From a virus (lineage: Duplodnaviria > Caudoviricetes): 29,612 bases of DNA. Positions 20,040-29,403 of this stretch are shown here, in pieces. Under the pieces are notes generated by a model. That model made no database searches, had not been told where the DNA came from, and saw only the letters and a program-made list of their open reading frames with translations. The DNA lies in IMG/VR virus record IMGVR_UViG_3300017912_001229, positions 1 through 29,612 of that record. One strand, 5' to 3'. Both the position numbers and the translations under genes were made by a program. Numbering within the stretch: the stretch's first letter is position 1; each line of letters starts with the position of its first letter.

Positions 20040-20367
20040 TTGCCCGCTCTATCACGATGGGCGGCAGATCCTGGGCCTCAGGTTCTTGTTGATCTGTTTG
20101 CCCTAACCAATTCTTGCCGAGCCATACCAACATTGTGGTATTGCCATCCATCGCAGCAGTGTATTGCTTGCGGCGTAGGCTCATTTTCCCGTGACTGGCC
20201 TTTTGCTTGAAATAATCCGAAAAACCCACCCCCTGCTCTCTTTTACAGGCGCTATTTAGCGTGTCGTAATCCACTCCCAGGATTGATGCCTGCTCCTCTC
20301 CAGTACAGTGAATCGCACACATTTTATCGACTTGATCCCAGTCGATTATCTTCAACGGTCTAGCCAT
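20026..20367 (-). CDS. terS: Terminase small subunit
   Basis: MARP..., CT.EE.A.ILGV HTH, SLRRKQ, MLVWLGKNWLGQTD; overlaps TerL start. Confidence 0.85.
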   Translation of the reverse strand: MARPLKIIDWDQVDKMCAIHCTGEEQASILGVDYDTLNSACKREQGVGFSDYFKQKASHGKMSLRRKQYTAAMDGNTTMLVWLGKNWLGQTDQQEPEAQDLPPIVIERASEAN

Positions 20368-21235
20368 GCTTTTTATAACTCTCGGGCACTATCATTGGGC
20401 AAGCGTGTTTCCAGTTCAGTCGGTGATGTAGTCTCCTAGCTGTTACGCCTAACTCGCTGATTTTCACGCAGGAGGGCGCATACATGACGCTGTAGAAGCT
20501 CTTGACGTATGTACCCAAGTCTAAATAGATGTCGGTCAAGCCGCCGTCATTAGCTTGTGTTTGTTTCTGGTGCAGCCTGATCCTGGGCGCTGTTATAAAA
20601 AGCGATCCTCGTAACCCATTTTCTGCATAAAGGTTCACATCTTCGTTGATCCTGCCCATGAACTTAAAGGGTCTATCAACGCTACAAAAAAAGCTGTTCA
20701 TTACCTTACGGGCAAACTGCCCCCGCTTATGTAGTTTGGCGAGACGTGCCTCTCCACCACCTATGAAGTCCCCTCCCTGAGCCATAGCCAGTGTGGTCGC
20801 TCCGCTGTCTATGAAGTACTGCAGCATGGCTTCTATCACGCCATCGAGGGACTTGATCGTGCATGATTTAGTTATATATTGGCGGTCGTTGTCGAACGCA
20901 TACCGAAAGTCTGTGTAATCGTCATCAAGCTCTAAAAAATAAGTGATGCCAAGCTGTTTTGCCACCGCGAATGTATAGTTCCTGGCGTATACAACGCTGT
21001 TTCGCTTACCGAAATTGTCCCCAGAGTCGGTAATGTCTATTGCCGCTTGCTTATCGAATACCACAACCTGATCTCCGTACATTTCTTTGTACCGCGGAAT
21101 GTCGGCATCCTCGTTATCTACCATCAAGTAGATTCGGCCCGTATAGCCGTGTTTGCGCAGACAATTGTACGTATAGACTTTATCGGCGCGCCCATGCGTT
21201 AGTATAAGTACAGCGAAGTCTTTTCTATTCTTCAT
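20360..21235 (-). CDS. GT-A fold glycosyltransferase, GREB1/TET-associated (TAGT)-like
   Basis: ILTHGRA, YARN, LDDDY (DxD), MNSFF, F.GRINED, QTQANDGGLT motifs. Confidence 0.78.
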   Translation of the reverse strand: MKNRKDFAVLILTHGRADKVYTYNCLRKHGYTGRIYLMVDNEDADIPRYKEMYGDQVVVFDKQAAIDITDSGDNFGKRNSVVYARNYTFAVAKQLGITYFLELDDDYTDFRYAFDNDRQYITKSCTIKSLDGVIEAMLQYFIDSGATTLAMAQGGDFIGGGEARLAKLHKRGQFARKVMNSFFCSVDRPFKFMGRINEDVNLYAENGLRGSLFITAPRIRLHQKQTQANDGGLTDIYLDLGTYVKSFYSVMYAPSCVKISELGVTARRLHHRLNWKHACPMIVPESYKKHG

Positions 21236-22010
21236 CTGGGTACTCTGTTGAATACTGAGACGATAGCTTTTCTGATAACGCTACGTAGCCATTCTCTATT
21301 GCCTTATCAAAGTCAATGATTACCAGGGCGCTGTTTTCCATCAGCTCCTGGCACTCCACGCTTGCGTTTGCGTAGTAGTTGGCGATCTCCTCAAAATTGA
21401 ACACAACGTGCCGATTGGCGGCAGCGAGTAAAAACATCTTCTCGTCTGTGGGTAGATCGGATCTCGTTATCTGCTCACATAACTGCACTGCTTTAGAGTC
21501 GTCAAATAGTGATTGCACCTCTGGCTTTTCCCCAGTTGGCTCGTATACAGGAATCTCTACCTTCTGCGTATACGGGTTTTCAGAATCGGCGGCGACATCA
21601 CTGTCAATCCGAATAGCAGCCAGCAAATCATCGTCCAGTGCCAGTACATCTATATCGAACTCTAGTTCCCGCAGCCTCTCGACTTCGAGGGCTAGAATGT
21701 CCGTATCCCACCCCCCGTTTTCTGAGAGCTTGTTGTCTGCTATCACATACGCTTTCTTTTGTGCCTCGGTAAGTCCTGCCAGAGTTATCGTAGGCACCAA
21801 CTCCATGCCTAACTTCTGCGCCGCTGCAAGCCTGCCATGGCCTGCAATGATTCCATTGTGCTCGTCTAACAGTATCGGGTTGTTAAACCCGAACTCCTTA
21901 ATGCTCGCCGCAACCTGCGCCACCTGTTGCTCACTGTGGGTGCGTGGGTTGTTTGCGTACGGAATAACGTCCGTTGTGGCTATGTATGCCACCTCAAGAT
22001 TCTGATTCAC
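21225..22010 (-). CDS. ParB/Srx N-terminal domain fused to an uncharacterised helical C-terminal domain
   Basis: PYANNPRTH, SIKEFGFNNPIL, IIAGHGRLAAA, IADNK; C-term YTQKVEIPVYEP...RHVVFNFEEIANYYA...SALVIIDFDKAIENGYV. Confidence 0.85.
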   Translation of the reverse strand: MNQNLEVAYIATTDVIPYANNPRTHSEQQVAQVAASIKEFGFNNPILLDEHNGIIAGHGRLAAAQKLGMELVPTITLAGLTEAQKKAYVIADNKLSENGGWDTDILALEVERLRELEFDIDVLALDDDLLAAIRIDSDVAADSENPYTQKVEIPVYEPTGEKPEVQSLFDDSKAVQLCEQITRSDLPTDEKMFLLAAANRHVVFNFEEIANYYANASVECQELMENSALVIIDFDKAIENGYVALSEKLSSQYSTEYPDEE

Positions 22011-24386: not shown

Positions 24387-24567
24387 CGGCCCTCTCCTCG
24401 ATAAATCGTTCACGTTGAACCAACTGCGCTAAATCCCTGCAAGCCTCTTCAAGCAACAGAATGTCCTTGGTGTGGCTGTACTCAGTCAGCAGATTAACCA
24501 CCCGCCCACTGAGGTAATTTAGATTGTTTGCGACGATGTATTCCCAAGGCTCAATCTCTTTCATCAT
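24379..24567 (-). CDS. Hypothetical protein
   Basis: ATGA overlap with phosphoesterase stop (MMKEIEPWEY). Confidence 0.65.
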   Translation of the reverse strand: MMKEIEPWEYIVANNLNYLSGRVVNLLTEYSHTKDILLLEEACRDLAQLVQRERFIEERADA

Positions 24568-25532
24568 GGGTAATCTACTTGATGTATCTGGCCCCGCCAC
24601 TCGTACTCGCCAGCTTTATGAACTTTGACAAACTCCGGCATCAGCAAGAAGTTATCACGAATGTTGAGCACAACGAACCCGCTGACCCAGTTTTTTGGGC
24701 CATCCTCAGCGTAATCGAATGTCGGTTGATTTGGGTCTGCCATCGTTCCGCACTGAATCCCGTACCGTTCTCCAGTGTAGTCAGTCCACGACTTGCATTC
24801 CATTTGATGTGTATGCCCCGTGACCATCGTCACGCCACTTTTGAGGGCGTTGTTGTATCCGGCGTGGATTCCGCCATTGTATCTATGCTTAATCACGATT
24901 GGACGCTCTGCGCCCTCCACCCACAAGCTCAGGCAGAATTCCCAGTTGCTGAAATGATCCCGTAAGGTGAATCCTGGAACACCTTTGAACTGCGGCAAAA
25001 GGTCTGCCAGCCGCATATCGAATCGAGCATCGTGATTACCCAAACACCAGTATCGCTCCGCGCCAGGCGCTGCTTTTTCGATTTCCTCCAACCGCTGACG
25101 TACCGTGTTCAGTTCTTGTTCTACGGTGGGCCTTTCCTCCCAACCCAGTGGTGGATGCCTGCTGATACTCGCACCATCGAGCAAGTCACCGTTAAGAATG
25201 ATAACGTCTGGCTGTAGTTCTTTGGCTAGTTCAACGAAGGCAAGGTGGGCAGTGGTGACGCTGTTCGCTTCGTAATGTGCATCCGAGCCGATCATTATGC
25301 ACATCGAGTTATCGACGGTGATCGACTTTCTAATTGTCCTGCGGGGCTTTCCGCTACGATCTAAGTGAGCAGGGACGTTTAACGGTCTGCCCAGTTGCCC
25401 CTCAACAGTCCGGCGCTTCTGGTAGACATTCCTAACACTGATGTCGTATTTAATCGCCATCCCCGACGCGCCTAAGCGCTCAAAGTCGAGTGCGAATACG
25501 TTTGGGTCAGTCGGTAACTTTCTCTTTGCCAT
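24564..25532 (-). CDS. Calcineurin-like metallophosphoesterase with N-terminal HTH-like region
   Basis: SDAH, NGDLLD, GNHD, KH, GHTH motifs; start reassigned to ATG at 25532. Confidence 0.88.
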   Translation of the reverse strand: MAKRKLPTDPNVFALDFERLGASGMAIKYDISVRNVYQKRRTVEGQLGRPLNVPAHLDRSGKPRRTIRKSITVDNSMCIMIGSDAHYEANSVTTAHLAFVELAKELQPDVIILNGDLLDGASISRHPPLGWEERPTVEQELNTVRQRLEEIEKAAPGAERYWCLGNHDARFDMRLADLLPQFKGVPGFTLRDHFSNWEFCLSLWVEGAERPIVIKHRYNGGIHAGYNNALKSGVTMVTGHTHQMECKSWTDYTGERYGIQCGTMADPNQPTFDYAEDGPKNWVSGFVVLNIRDNFLLMPEFVKVHKAGEYEWRGQIHQVDYP

Positions 25533-25689
25533 AGCCCCCTCTGCGAGCGTATGAGTTACAAACGTGGGCAAAAACCAACGTCTTGAGTTTATCGTCCGAT
25601 TCTGTCTTCTGTTCTGCTTCCCAAACCTGCTTGGCTGCTGCGTCCATGGCCCTCACCATATCGACCGCAATAGCCCTGGGGCTTCTCAT
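25507..25689 (-). CDS. Hypothetical protein
   Basis: ATGA overlap with NinG stop; 60 aa. Confidence 0.65.
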   Translation of the reverse strand: MRSPRAIAVDMVRAMDAAAKQVWEAEQKTESDDKLKTLVFAHVCNSYARRGGYGKEKVTD

Positions 25690-26111
25690 CTCCGTTCACC
25701 AATTCTGCGCTCATGCGCTTTGATCTGTTCTTCCCAGTCTGAAATCATCTCACGATAATCGGATGCGTAAAACTTAACTGGGTCTTTCTTTGTGGACAGC
25801 ATGTATTCCACAGTGTCTCGTCCGTACCAATCCATCATCCACATTGTGTACTGAGCTTCTGCGCTGCCATGCTTCATACCATAGCCGTTGCAGCCCTTAC
25901 ATTGCGGGTTCACATTTTGTTCTTCAAGCGCCCACCGCGATGAGGAACCCTTAGGTATGAAATGACCACCGTCCATGTTTTTGTAGTGATCTAACTTGCC
26001 ACAGCTTACGCATTTACAATAACCATTCCCATCGGCGGCGCTAATCCTGCACAGCTTTTGCAACGTTTTCAATGCTTTGGCTCTCAAAGTTTGCGTTGAT
26101 GTTTTTTTCAA
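25686..26111 (-). CDS. ninG: NinG/Rap-family recombination endonuclease
   Basis: CVSCG, MDGGHFI, NVNPQCKGCN motifs. Confidence 0.85.
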   Translation of the reverse strand: MKKTSTQTLRAKALKTLQKLCRISAADGNGYCKCVSCGKLDHYKNMDGGHFIPKGSSSRWALEEQNVNPQCKGCNGYGMKHGSAEAQYTMWMMDWYGRDTVEYMLSTKKDPVKFYASDYREMISDWEEQIKAHERRIGERR

Positions 26112-26703
26112 AATTTCGTACCCGCTCTCTCAACTCCTCCAGGAACACTGAGACCTTTTTTTCCAACTCAGCTATATATTGTTTTGTTGGTTCGAAACGC
26201 ATGATCCACAATTGTTGGTTCTCTGGCAGTCTCGGATCGTACATCACGAAATCACACCAATTACGCTCTGTACATGCGAGTTGCCAGGCCATCTGCGTTT
26301 TGTAATTTTCTGGAATTGTGCCGCGCAATACAGTGTTTACCATTGTGGTGGTATTCGGGCATTTTATCTCGATCAAACCCCTCTCGCCGATTAAGCCGTC
26401 AGGGCTTGCGCTAGATTCTGCAATTCTAGGGTGCGCTATTGTACCTACTTCCTGTACAACACATTTTTTTACGATTTCATATCGTAACCTCGCGAAAGGC
26501 TCTGTATCAATTCCCCACTGCATTGCTGGGCTAACAGCTATTTCTTTATGCTCACCCGTCAATCGCTCGTTGATCAGTTCATCCATCAAGCGTTGGCGTG
26601 ATGCGCTATACCCCGATTTAGTTTCCGCGATCGCGTCGTGACAGCGACTAGCTGTCAAATTCCCCAATCTGAACAAATGCCACTCCGGACTCCCCTGTAT
26701 CAT
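26041..26703 (-). CDS. YqaJ / lambda-exonuclease family protein
   Basis: QGSPEW...R.G.LTAS, AMQWG...EP.AR, ASPDGL, IEIKCP, QM..QL.CT.R.WCDFV.YDPR. Confidence 0.92.
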   Translation of the reverse strand: MIQGSPEWHLFRLGNLTASRCHDAIAETKSGYSASRQRLMDELINERLTGEHKEIAVSPAMQWGIDTEPFARLRYEIVKKCVVQEVGTIAHPRIAESSASPDGLIGERGLIEIKCPNTTTMVNTVLRGTIPENYKTQMAWQLACTERNWCDFVMYDPRLPENQQLWIMRFEPTKQYIAELEKKVSVFLEELRERVRNFEKNINANFESQSIENVAKAVQD

Positions 26704-27020
26704 CAGACAATACCCCGCTGATTAGCCTGTTTTGTTCTTTCTGCATCGAAAGTCAACTGAGCGAGGTTTATCAATTTTTTGGTCAATTCGACCTCTAAGT
26801 TTGCTTCAGCGACTTCTCGGTACCTCTTAGCCCATTCTGTTGTGGATCGAGTCTCTGTTTGCGCTTTAGCAGCACTTGCCCCTGCATCCATGTGCGCTTT
26901 CTGGACAGATGCTTCATAAGACTTGAAAGTTGTTTCTGCTTCAATGGCCTGCCTGCTGGCTCCCTCCCAGTTAGTTATACGATCATTTAGTACAGATAAA
27001 ATGATGTCTAGTCTATCCAC
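26703..27020 (-). CDS. Coiled-coil hypothetical protein (possible recombination mediator)
   Basis: GGGAGG SD before GTG; all-helical, ends RTKQANQR; coupled to exonuclease. Confidence 0.7.
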   Translation of the reverse strand: MDRLDIILSVLNDRITNWEGASRQAIEAETTFKSYEASVQKAHMDAGASAAKAQTETRSTTEWAKRYREVAEANLEVELTKKLINLAQLTFDAERTKQANQRGIV

Positions 27021-27039
27021 TTTTCCTCCCGTATAGATG

Positions 27040-27370
27040 ACATTTAGTGGGGTTAGGTGGCCCCACTATGCTATGCCGATTTATTACCAGTCTGTATTTC
27101 CATCCGACCATTTCCGAGCTGGCCCATACTCCGCCCACCTAACTATCTCAACAGAGAGAGTGAGGATTTTGCCACCATTAACGGATGTTCGATTTGGCGC
27201 TCCCACTAATGCGCCCAGATTCTGGCAAATTGTCTTTGGTCGTTCTGCTCAACGGGTCAACCACCCGCACTGTACGCTTTTCCGTACAAGCCTCTGCCAC
27301 ATAAGTGGAGCGAATAAATGGGCCAGCCCCCAAACAACGGGGAGGGGGTAGGGTATGGGGACTGACCACG
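27040..27370 (-). ncRNA. Putative large structured non-coding RNA (or structured origin) downstream of cro-like gene
   Basis: Multiple nested perfect inverted repeats, a loop pseudoknot and alternative helices; strand suggested by G-U pairs in the 27321-27367 hairpin. Confidence 0.55.
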
Positions 27371-27372
27371 AA

Positions 27373-27591
27373 CTAAATCTTCCATTCCGGCAAAAAAATG
27401 TCCGGCCTAATATCATGCGGCTTTACCTGCCCCCCTGCAAGCCTACAAACCTGTATGACCTTATCCGCTGGTATTCTCGTATTCCTCCAGTGCGTAAGGA
27501 GTTGAGGCGAGACACCTACCAGCCTAGCAAACTGTGATTGATTGCCATTCGCGGCAGTCTGGATCAACTTTTTGTACATTTCTGCATTCAT
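27373..27591 (-). CDS. Cro-like / YdaS-family HTH regulator
   Basis: GNQSQFARLVGVSPQLLTHW...IPA...HDIRPDIF signature; no SD, TAGAGT 6 nt before ATG suggests leaderless mRNA. Confidence 0.88.
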   Translation of the reverse strand: MNAEMYKKLIQTAANGNQSQFARLVGVSPQLLTHWRNTRIPADKVIQVCRLAGGQVKPHDIRPDIFLPEWKI

Positions 27592-28056: not shown

Positions 28057-28244
28057 TGGGTAGGGTCAAATCTGAAATGTTCGAGGATGAGCTTGGCGCT
28101 GATGACGAATTGGTGCCAAAGCGCACAAAAGAACAAATTACGAAAGAAATTGAAGAGTGCGACATTCCAAGAGGAACACAGGAACGACGCGAATTTATGC
28201 ACGAAAGACTGAAGGAGTTACTTGATGAAATCCAACGCGGATGA
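28056..28244 (+). CDS. Small hypothetical protein
   Basis: TAATG overlap, GGAGG SD; MGRVK N-terminus typical of small early phage proteins. Confidence 0.7.
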   Translation: MGRVKSEMFEDELGADDELVPKRTKEQITKEIEECDIPRGTQERREFMHERLKELLDEIQRG

Positions 28245-28806
28245 AATTTACCAGGCGCTAAGTAGACCCTGGCCTCCAGGGCAGGTTAAAGAACGCAAGG
28301 GTCCTGGAAGCAAAATGCTTTCCTATGTCGATGCTCGGCAGGTACAAAATAGGCTAGATGAGGTCGTGGGATCTGGCAACTGGCAAACTCATTTCACCGA
28401 GGTGTGTGGCAATTACTGCTGCACCCTCGCAATAAAAATTGATGGCGAATGGGTTGCCAAGTCTGATGGTGCTGGCGGGACATCAATAGAGGGAGACAAG
28501 GGCGGATTTAGCGATGCTTTTAAACGTGCAGCCGTGTCGTTTGGCGTGGCGCGCTACCTTTATACAGATTCGCAGCTTACGCCAGAACAATTTGACGCAC
28601 GAACCGCTAAAACTCCAACAACAGATCCAGACGATGTACTGACCGCAAAAGATCTGATACGCGCGATTCAAAAAAACGACAAAGCAAAAGCGAATCTCAT
28701 CTGGGAATCGGTATCGACAAGCAAAGAATCATCGCGGTCGATCTGGCGCATACTGAACGAAACCGAGCGCGATTACATAAAATTATTGCGCGAAAAAGAG
28801 GAGTAG
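28222..28806 (+). CDS. Rad52/Rad22-family single-strand annealing protein (Sak-like)
   Basis: LSYVDARQVQNRLDEVVG..NW, KSDGA, KGGFSDAFKRAAV.FGVARYLY. Confidence 0.9.
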   Translation: MMKSNADEIYQALSRPWPPGQVKERKGPGSKMLSYVDARQVQNRLDEVVGSGNWQTHFTEVCGNYCCTLAIKIDGEWVAKSDGAGGTSIEGDKGGFSDAFKRAAVSFGVARYLYTDSQLTPEQFDARTAKTPTTDPDDVLTAKDLIRAIQKNDKAKANLIWESVSTSKESSRSIWRILNETERDYIKLLREKEE

Positions 28807-28810
28807 GTAA

Positions 28811-29107
28811 ATGCAAGAAACACCAGCGTACAAATTGCATCGCCGAGATGCGCCACAAACCTCTGTAGATGCAGCTAATGCCGTAAAAACCACAGAGATG
28901 GAAACCATTGTGCTTGAGACAATAAGACGACTAGGACAAAGCGGCTGTATCCAGGACGATGTTTTAAGGGCTTTATGGGGTTATTCCTACAGCAGTGTGA
29001 CTGCTAGATTCAAGGCGTTGCATGAAAAGGGCTACATTGAATACACCGGCGAAAAGCGGAAAGGGCGCAGTGGTAGAAATCAACGTGTTATGAGGAAAAT
29101 AGCGTGA
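28811..29107 (+). CDS. Winged-HTH DNA-binding protein
   Basis: HRRDAPQTSVDAA, SSVTARFKALHEKGYI, RKGRSGRNQRV motifs. Confidence 0.75.
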   Translation: MQETPAYKLHRRDAPQTSVDAANAVKTTEMETIVLETIRRLGQSGCIQDDVLRALWGYSYSSVTARFKALHEKGYIEYTGEKRKGRSGRNQRVMRKIA

Positions 29108-29403
29108 GCGACATACAATTCGTGAATGGCATTCGAGTCTTCGAACCCAACAAGGAATGGATCAAGGCCGAAGTCAAAATTAACAAAGAAGAGCTAAGGA
29201 ATTGGCTCAATACGGCAACCTTCGACGATGGCGGTCTTGATAAGAACGGCAACATCAAGGCCCAGATCAAGGTTGGCAAAAGCGGCAACTGGTATCTAGC
29301 AGTCAATAAGTGGCAGCCCAAAGGCGGCCAGTCTTCCAAGGCTTATACACCACCCTCTCCACCTCAAACGATGGATGACTTCGAGGACGACATTCCGTTC
29401 TGA
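29104..29403 (+). CDS. Single-stranded DNA-binding protein-like
   Basis: Short beta-rich core, low-complexity linker, acidic C-terminus DDFEDDIPF. Confidence 0.7.
   Translation: MSDIQFVNGIRVFEPNKEWIKAEVKINKEELRNWLNTATFDDGGLDKNGNIKAQIKVGKSGNWYLAVNKWQPKGGQSSKAYTPPSPPQTMDDFEDDIPF

Follow-up and report, generated by a model that had tools for sequence, protein, structure and literature searches.

How can a small tailed phage start its replication when the site of the initiator gene is taken by a stretch without a credible gene? The DNA analyzed here (the window, 29,612 nt) is a complete 29.6-kb phage record, IMGVR_UViG_3300017912_001229, with direct terminal repeats. Its head and tail genes are of the siphovirus type, and its closest isolates by capsid are HTVC111P-type pelagiphages (44-50% identity). 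Among the 45 ORFs scanned in the window, none was annotated as an initiator, a primase, DnaB or a polymerase. The element in question lies between a cro-like gene and orf105, in the following setting.

27373..27591, minus strand: cro-like regulator (phrog_35, E=4e-15)
27312..27367, minus strand: post-cro hairpin (27367-57/27331-21), C-rich in its loop and accompanied by a U-rich run; found in 80 of 100 homologues with flanks
27038..27311, minus strand: core of the predicted structured RNA, about 274 nt, with domain 1 (27311-27238) and domain 2 (27234-27038); 104 distinct homologues
26703..27020, minus strand: orf105, predicted UvsY-like recombination mediator (AF2 model and structural match to T4 UvsY)
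24564..26703, minus strand: YqaJ exonuclease, NinG and metallophosphoesterase (nin-like region) downstream of orf105, by annotation
28222..29403, plus strand: divergent operon with a Rad52/Sak annealing protein, a small wHTH protein and a putative SSB-like protein, by annotation

The orf105 product is predicted to be a UvsY-like recombination mediator. Its AF2 model has a pLDDT of 95, and the top TM-score in the PDB was obtained with T4 UvsY (4zwt; TM 0.82-0.83, rmsd 2.1-2.3), but with E=0.19 and for a simple helical fold. The Atlas lead was 0.89, with UvsY on 11% of the members. The family has no Pfam or PHROG match and is misnamed in sources. The third protein of the divergent operon would be SSB-like judging from its acidic tail alone, and had no profile match. 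Ahead of the terminase, a glucosyltransferase-like gene and a ParB-domain gene (20360-22010) suggest DNA modification; relatives have Mom-like or PAPS-reductase genes in their place. GC skew simply tracks the direction of transcription and is uninformative.

The first-pass annotation had described here a densely structured non-coding element, possibly an undescribed RNA, and had listed a series of inverted repeats, all of which were found in the window. The 331-nt region also folds better than dinucleotide shuffles (z=-3.07 on the plus strand, z=-2.09 on the minus strand). Eighty orf105 loci were sampled, 67 of which extend to cro, and all 67 carry the element in a gap of 340-450 nt. Its DNA identity over these loci is 72-97%, while that of the cro gene frequently drops to about 35%. 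Scanning viral and metagenome contigs with patterns, over 34 of 64 parts in the last scan, widened the set of homologues and added a divergent subfamily 2 (L160, L135, L296 and others). There, a terminator-like hairpin comes after the element, then an SF2 helicase and then an orf105 homologue. In total, 275 complete matches were reduced to 104 distinct cores, with a mean identity of 75%, a minimum of 53% and about 30 effective sequences. Some loci present an optional structured insertion of about 70 nt between the post-cro hairpin and the core (L058:1885-2005, also L016, L028, L034, L047, L054 and L059-L062).

More distant homologues were sought with a covariance model of domain 2, not of the full length, which gave no convincing hit among 100 pattern non-hits and none in 64 relatives; the covariance-model search over 30 records had no positive control within it. 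Applied to HTVC111P, DSL-LC06 and MEP301, the model found nothing (best score 12.5 bits). Phage isolates gave neither a DNA match to the element nor a match to orf105. In the 50 of 64 parts of the bacterial genomes that were scanned, 120 pattern matches were obtained and none was real by HMM; thus, no host or prophage was identified.

The secondary structure was modeled by hand with the help of mutual information, and 56 pairs in 11 helices were counted on a MAFFT alignment. P1-P3 and Pe were omitted from this count, owing to misalignment or variable length, and Pe was judged by eye. Over the 56 modeled pairs, 97.2% of the cells are paired in the 104 cores (29-39% in slid controls), and 25 pairs show compensatory changes on both sides. 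None of 500 shuffles reached the observed pairing or covariation score; the observed number of double-changed pairs was reached by 22 of 500 and the number of pair types by 490 of 500. Double changes recur on the tree in Pc (about 8 and 8 events), P4 (5 and 3), PK0 (4), PK1 (3+1+1), PK2 (3) and PK3 (2+4+2), event counts that recombination may have inflated. The RNA is thus predicted to fold into two domains with four pseudoknots, one of which competes with a hairpin at the 3' end. Its predicted parts, apart from the 3' tail, are as follows.

27238..27311, minus strand: domain 1, four-way junction with a loop-to-3' pseudoknot, from covariation
27311-08/27250-47, minus strand: P1, domain 1
27307-05/27300-298, minus strand: P2, with a UUCG or GNRA loop in many homologues
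27292-27269, minus strand: P3, domain 1, variable
27268-63/27257-52, minus strand: P4, whose loop forms PK0
27262-58/27242-38, minus strand: PK0, changed from G-C to A-U in 22 of 104 cores (about 4 tree events)
27084..27228, minus strand: nested core of domain 2 with an H-type pseudoknot, from covariation
27228-22/27090-84, minus strand: Pb2, domain 2
27219-16/27094-91, minus strand: Pb1, domain 2
27215-11/27200-196, minus strand: Pc, domain 2
27187-83/27105-01, minus strand: Pd, domain 2
about 27167-27137, minus strand: Pe, variable hairpin of domain 2, by eye
27131-29/27118-16, minus strand: Pf, domain 2
27124-20/27110-06, minus strand: PK3, pseudoknot with Pf

Domain 1 contains a conserved GCARA, and domain 2 the invariant motifs GAACA and UGRAAAU, the latter presumably T-loop-like. 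The strand can be read from the changes themselves. Counted on the minus strand, G·U cells number 529 and A·C cells 52, and the P2 and P3 loops are UUCG or GNRA tetraloops only when read on that strand (C(UUCG)G occurs in 29 of 104 cores). The functional strand is therefore the minus strand, in sense with cro, and not the plus strand on which the repeats had been described. We also noticed that a GUGGGC-like word after Pe (27132-27140) covaries in the same sense with a word before PK2' (27056-27065; GGGC, GGGUC or AGGAC), which might point to a base triple or to yet another alternative pairing, the third.

Two ORFs overlap the element in the window, one of 104 aa on the plus strand and one of 63 aa on the minus strand, and could speak for a small protein gene. 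No profile match was obtained for these ORFs, and they are not conserved among 62 distinct cro-to-orf105 spacers: the plus frame attains 100 codons in only 6 of 62, and the spacer lengths are spread over all three frames (18/24/20). Frame-breaking indels, together with the strong covariation, refute both a small protein gene and chance folding, which can practically be dismissed.

The 3' tail of the RNA seems to have two alternative states, deduced from covariation and from a hairpin test.

27038..27068, minus strand: 3' tail with two alternative states
27176-71/27061-56, minus strand: PK2, docked state, 99.4% paired with compensatory changes
27208-02/27051-45, minus strand: PK1, docked state, 98.7% paired with compensatory changes
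27234-32/27041-39, minus strand: Pa, docked state, weak pairing of the 3' tail
27068-61/27052-45, minus strand: local hairpin, undocked state, the 8-bp hairpin of the first-pass annotation

Domain 2 would thus receive the tail twice, through PK2 and PK1. In the undocked state, all 104 cores form a hairpin at this site, at -3 kcal/mol or better; column by column, the 8-bp pairing first proposed is kept in only 1 of 62 spacers, as a result of register shifts. The 5' arm of the hairpin tracks the variable base of the tail (61/63 and 28/31), and none of 200 swapped-arm controls folded equally well. Covariation also links this tail strand to the Pc loop. With two mutually exclusive partners, the tail would constitute a conserved switch.

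The other repeats initially listed had diverse outcomes. CCAC/GTGG and CGGGT/ACCCG are fully paired in 62 of 62 spacers, on the minus strand, and GGCGC/GCGCC pairs in every one of the 104 cores and shows compensatory changes. TGTACG/CGTACA behaves as an optional extension, present in 27 of 62 spacers. The 10-bp long-range inverted repeat (2 of 62) and TTTGCCA/TGGCAAA (7 of 62) are not maintained. The 8-nt pseudoknot TTAGGTGG/CCACCTAA persists at full length in 2 of 62 spacers, with an invariant core of 4-5 bp remaining. The arms of these last three each pair elsewhere with a different, covarying partner.

Database searches gave no known counterpart. With Rfam, the window had no match at E<=1, and the region with 11 homologous loci had only chance matches at E<=10. 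There was no covariance-model match to ARRPOF, PAGEV, GEBRO, GOLLD, ROOL, raiA, tmRNA, RNase P, group I intron or riboswitches, families that we take to be contained in Rfam 15, and none to the Rfam family RNAI. ARAGORN found no tRNA or tmRNA gene. Any tmRNA tag frame is broken by indels, and resemblances to a tmRNA tag, RNase P, a group I intron, glmS or a hammerhead were rejected, as the matching bases pair elsewhere or vary. The element had no match in 72,556 plasmids (pB1067 is not among them). Homology to ColE1 RNA II/ori was also rejected, with no HMM or CM match and local alignments at p>=0.065 (8 homologues, both strands); pAsa1, which has a Rep gene, served poorly as a control. The literature covered, largely without subscription papers, describes neither the element nor an origin of the folded-RNA kind for any tailed phage. 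The motifs are absent from the four supplements of Fremin 2023 (PMC10690425) that were searched; fragments of the phage RNA may be present, unnamed, among that study's candidates of 29-151 nt. Covariation in 104 homologues and the absence of an Rfam match strongly support the existence of an undescribed structured non-coding RNA with a multi-stem fold on one strand.

How could this RNA be transcribed? The post-cro hairpin, present in 80 of 100 homologues with flanks and followed in 65 of them by at least 5 T in 8, is likely a tR1-like terminator or a processing site. Its loop (27332-27356), a long C/U-rich tract kept in both subfamilies and missing from the L065/L074 subgroup, presumably resembles an anti-Shine-Dalgarno or a Rho-loading sequence. 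Downstream of the core, 85 of 100 homologues present an RBS and a start codon within 55 nt, and 7 of 100 a terminator. The core of subfamily 2 is bracketed by terminator-like hairpins, and only this subfamily has an AT-rich tail. No conserved sigma70 promoter was found near the RNA on either strand, and antisense sigma70 sites inside the core occur in at most 6 of 79 homologues, both with a consensus that may not be that of the host. As no sigma70-type promoter is conserved nearer, the RNA is likely made by read-through from the cro promoter; about 550 nt separate the start of cro from the element's 3' end. DnaA boxes were present between -400 and +150 in 1 of 79 homologues, so that nothing points to an iteron/DnaA origin. 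Purine-rich tracts that favor R-loops are seen mostly on the opposite strand.

The content of the slot between cro and orf105 was compared among genomes. The RNA-bearing set consisted of 15 records, 92-100% complete, of siphovirus and podovirus types. None of the 15 has an O-like initiator of the known families (PF13730, phrog_19658), vs. 6 of 6 chosen controls, and phrog_270 gave just two 14-bit matches in the 15. Eight NinG relatives lack the RNA; in six of them, a strong O-like initiator comes straight after cro, in agreement with the earlier view that an initiator would be expected here. The other two (G018, G022) seem to break at the slot and were left out of the initiator, primase and DnaB counts. 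Neither primase nor DnaB was found over the cut-off in the 15 RNA genomes, and since the initiator-bearing controls lack both too, this absence does not discriminate. Among 596 partly redundant loci, 306 have the RNA, 30 have the initiator and none has both. An independent sample of 160 loci, taken by terminase and portal, revealed the other fillings of the slot described below. The initiator-bearing controls share 67-72% capsid identity with the RNA-bearing podoviruses; their GC content is 36-41% vs. about 50% in the RNA phages, so that they probably have different hosts and are no sister group.

In other relatives, the slot is filled by an SF2 helicase with a primase (L768, also L557) or by a primosomal protein (L687), which argues for an exchangeable replication module. 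Also, four close relatives in which cro and orf105 are both retained have a second, unrelated non-coding element of about 378 nt in the slot, and a third was detected in siphoviruses of 42-43% GC.

L648:975-1352, L651:4034-4413, L652:4173-4553 and L656:4447-4825: second slot element, in the cro-to-orf105 gap
L671:3150-3560, L669:1200-1608 and L693:3180-3570: third slot element, about 400 nt, after a cro-like gene

The distal 190 nt of the L648-type element are nearly invariant, with a fold z of about -2.1 (about 0 for the whole gap). Searches of Rfam gave no match to this element and those of plasmids no real one; phrog_270 was not found in the four fragments. In the L671-type element, 10 of 83 predicted pairs are compensatory, among only three sequences; a terminator-like hairpin and a promoter-like site (TTTACA-17-AATACT) lie ahead of it, and it had no Rfam or plasmid match. 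The RNA is thus not obligatory even beside orf105. Where it is absent and the slot was inspected (G032 not included), it contained either a replication gene or a different long non-coding element. The RNA itself is kept while the head module, the annealing protein and downstream genes are exchanged.

One and the same early module can adjoin structural genes of either siphovirus or podovirus type (G000, G001, G002, G007, G013 vs. G003, G004, G008), and close relatives differ by swaps of Sak, Erf and YqaJ. A RadD-like SF2 helicase (L533:6566-8090) is represented by two overlapping ORFs in G001 and is whole (517 aa) in L544. A distant orf105 homologue (L285:2855-3492) is directly preceded by a 99-aa match to phrog_154, "replication initiation protein".

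We hypothesize, with about an even chance of being right, that the element is an RNA-based, R-loop-type replication origin standing in for the missing initiator protein. The element is conserved, covaries on a definite strand, is non-coding, has an alternative pairing at its 3' end and is mutually exclusive with the initiator; from these observations we infer the transcription and priming steps as follows. Host RNA polymerase would start at the cro promoter and read through the post-cro hairpin, and the RNA would fold during synthesis. The exposed Pc loop and the GGUGRC junction would then capture their complement, either the tail of the RNA itself or the displaced non-template DNA strand, which would prevent the tail from closing the local hairpin, the putative off state. 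As the tail-pairing loops are equally complementary to the displaced strand, they would favor an R-loop, and the 3' part of the transcript would thereby be held on the template. RNase H or termination would provide Pol I with a 3'-OH, as outlined for ColE1 (PMC5043065). A host PriA-type primosome would load, before a later switch to a recombination-dependent mode with Sak/Erf, the UvsY-like protein, YqaJ and NinG.

This origin hypothesis is favored by the covarying structure, by the occupancy of the slot in 67 of 67 loci, by the absence of the initiator in 15 of 15 genomes, by the fact that RNA and initiator never occur together, and by the exchangeable nature of the slot. Precedents also exist in ColE1, MRB plasmids, ARRPOF and T4 oriF (PMC5043065, PMC3035462, PMC5737381, PMC12990946, PMC3016281). 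Against it stand the lack of a conserved promoter of its own, of an antisense RNA I promoter and of any similarity to ColE1 or plasmids, the need for read-through imposed by the terminator-like hairpin upstream in most homologues, and the location of R-loop-favoring purine-rich tracts mostly on the opposite strand. The controls also differ in GC and are probably not sisters, G034 has a weak initiator-family match beside a non-coding slot, and T4 R-loop origins do without a folded RNA. It is possible that an unrecognised initiator is encoded among the unannotated small ORFs (e.g., 76-540, 28811-29107).

Among the closest known systems are the ColE1 RNA II pre-primer, a precedent of an RNA-primed replicon, and ARRPOF, with which GEBRO and PAGEV are grouped. 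ColE1 RNA II also works without an initiator protein, through a long folded RNA with alternative pairings (PMC5043065), and the 550 nt or so from the cro start resemble RNA II. Unlike ColE1, the present element is phage-borne, has four predicted pseudoknots, is apparently carried on an mRNA and had no RNA I promoter detected; kinship with ColE1-type replicons found no backing, with no sequence similarity and no conserved antisense promoter. ARRPOF (PMC5737381, PMC12990946) is comparable in its size of about 255 nt, its four pseudoknots, its tie to Rep-independent replication and its alternative pairings. It belongs to a Fusobacterium plasmid, whereas our RNA occurs in aquatic phages and docks back its 3' tail, not its 5' end. 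The Marine RNA-based (MRB) replicons of Vibrionaceae (PMC3035462) have an ORF-free origin of about 500 bp, are marine, and are conserved while flanking genes vary; the phage element had no match in the plasmid set, to which pB1067 does not belong, and no antisense RNA I signal. T4 oriF, or ori(uvsY), is an R-loop origin where priming is followed by recombination-dependent replication, as proposed for the phage RNA, and a UvsY-fold gene adjoins (PMC3016281). In addition, subfamily 2 encodes an SF2 helicase (RadD E=1e-30, UvsW E=1.5e-7). T4 oriF consists of a promoter and an AT-rich unwinding element with no specific sequence and is served by T4's own replisome, whereas the RNA phages encode no detected polymerase, primase or DnaB. 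The UvsY-fold neighbor is thus a parallel with ori(uvsY), not a proof.

Other explanations have to be weighed. The RNA might be a free, trans-acting large RNA processed from the cro transcript, possibly oligomeric or catalytic, with replication by recombination or by an unrecognised protein and a merely incidental position. We regard this as rather unlikely. Like GOLLD, ROOL and raiA, it would be a large multi-pseudoknot RNA of unknown function associated with phages, but it is shorter, has no Rfam match, and this genome has no tRNA genes. A compact 3D fold would fit the four predicted pseudoknots and the invariant bases of the junctions, the terminator-like hairpins bracket the subfamily 2 core, and the long-range pairings could be intermolecular; a trans-acting role nevertheless leaves unexplained the strict exclusion with O-like initiators and the two further unrelated non-coding elements in the slot. 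A cis-acting switch of the downstream recombination and late genes, either a put-like antiterminator or a translational control exerted through the hairpin vs. PK1, had been proposed earlier as a large cis-regulator. It would agree with a bistable 3' end about 10 nt ahead of the orf105 RBS and with the RBS and start codon counts given above. However, the RBS is covered by neither state, the element sits after, not before, the first terminator-like hairpin, and the fold is kept though the downstream signal (an RBS in one subfamily, a terminator in the other) and gene differ; we thus hold this role to be distinctly unlikely.

The structure could also act as single-stranded DNA, as a primosome assembly site or a single-strand origin. 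Covariation cannot tell RNA from single-stranded DNA, as noted for plasmid motifs in PMC5737381, the replication slot is fitted equally well, and GCGAAAGC mini-hairpins are present in P3. Yet the C(UUCG)G and GNRA loops, the G·U cells and the orientation in sense with the cro transcript plead for RNA, which makes a DNA structure improbable, slightly more so than the cis-acting switch.

What emerges is an uncatalogued, strongly covarying RNA family of about 274 nt in the initiator slot of small aquatic phages, for which a function as an origin is plausible. A broader proposal, which we advance only tentatively, is that widespread aquatic tailed phages of about 30 kb swapped a lambda-O-like initiator for a pseudoknotted RNA that would clamp the displaced DNA strand into its own R-loop, and that at least three unrelated RNA families have occupied this slot. 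RNA-only replication modules would then be recurrent and overlooked in phages, and would explain marine phages without detectable replication genes. Even if the origin hypothesis fails, there remains an uncatalogued family of about 270 nt with four predicted pseudoknots and a conserved conformational switch, and two more candidate families in the same slot. Folded-RNA replicons are known from plasmids: ColE1, MRB and probably ARRPOF. Replication genes have not been identified in some abundant marine phages, for example HTVC106P (bioRxiv 10.1101/2019.12.14.876532). A non-coding module in the initiator slot offers a direct test of how such phages could start their replication.
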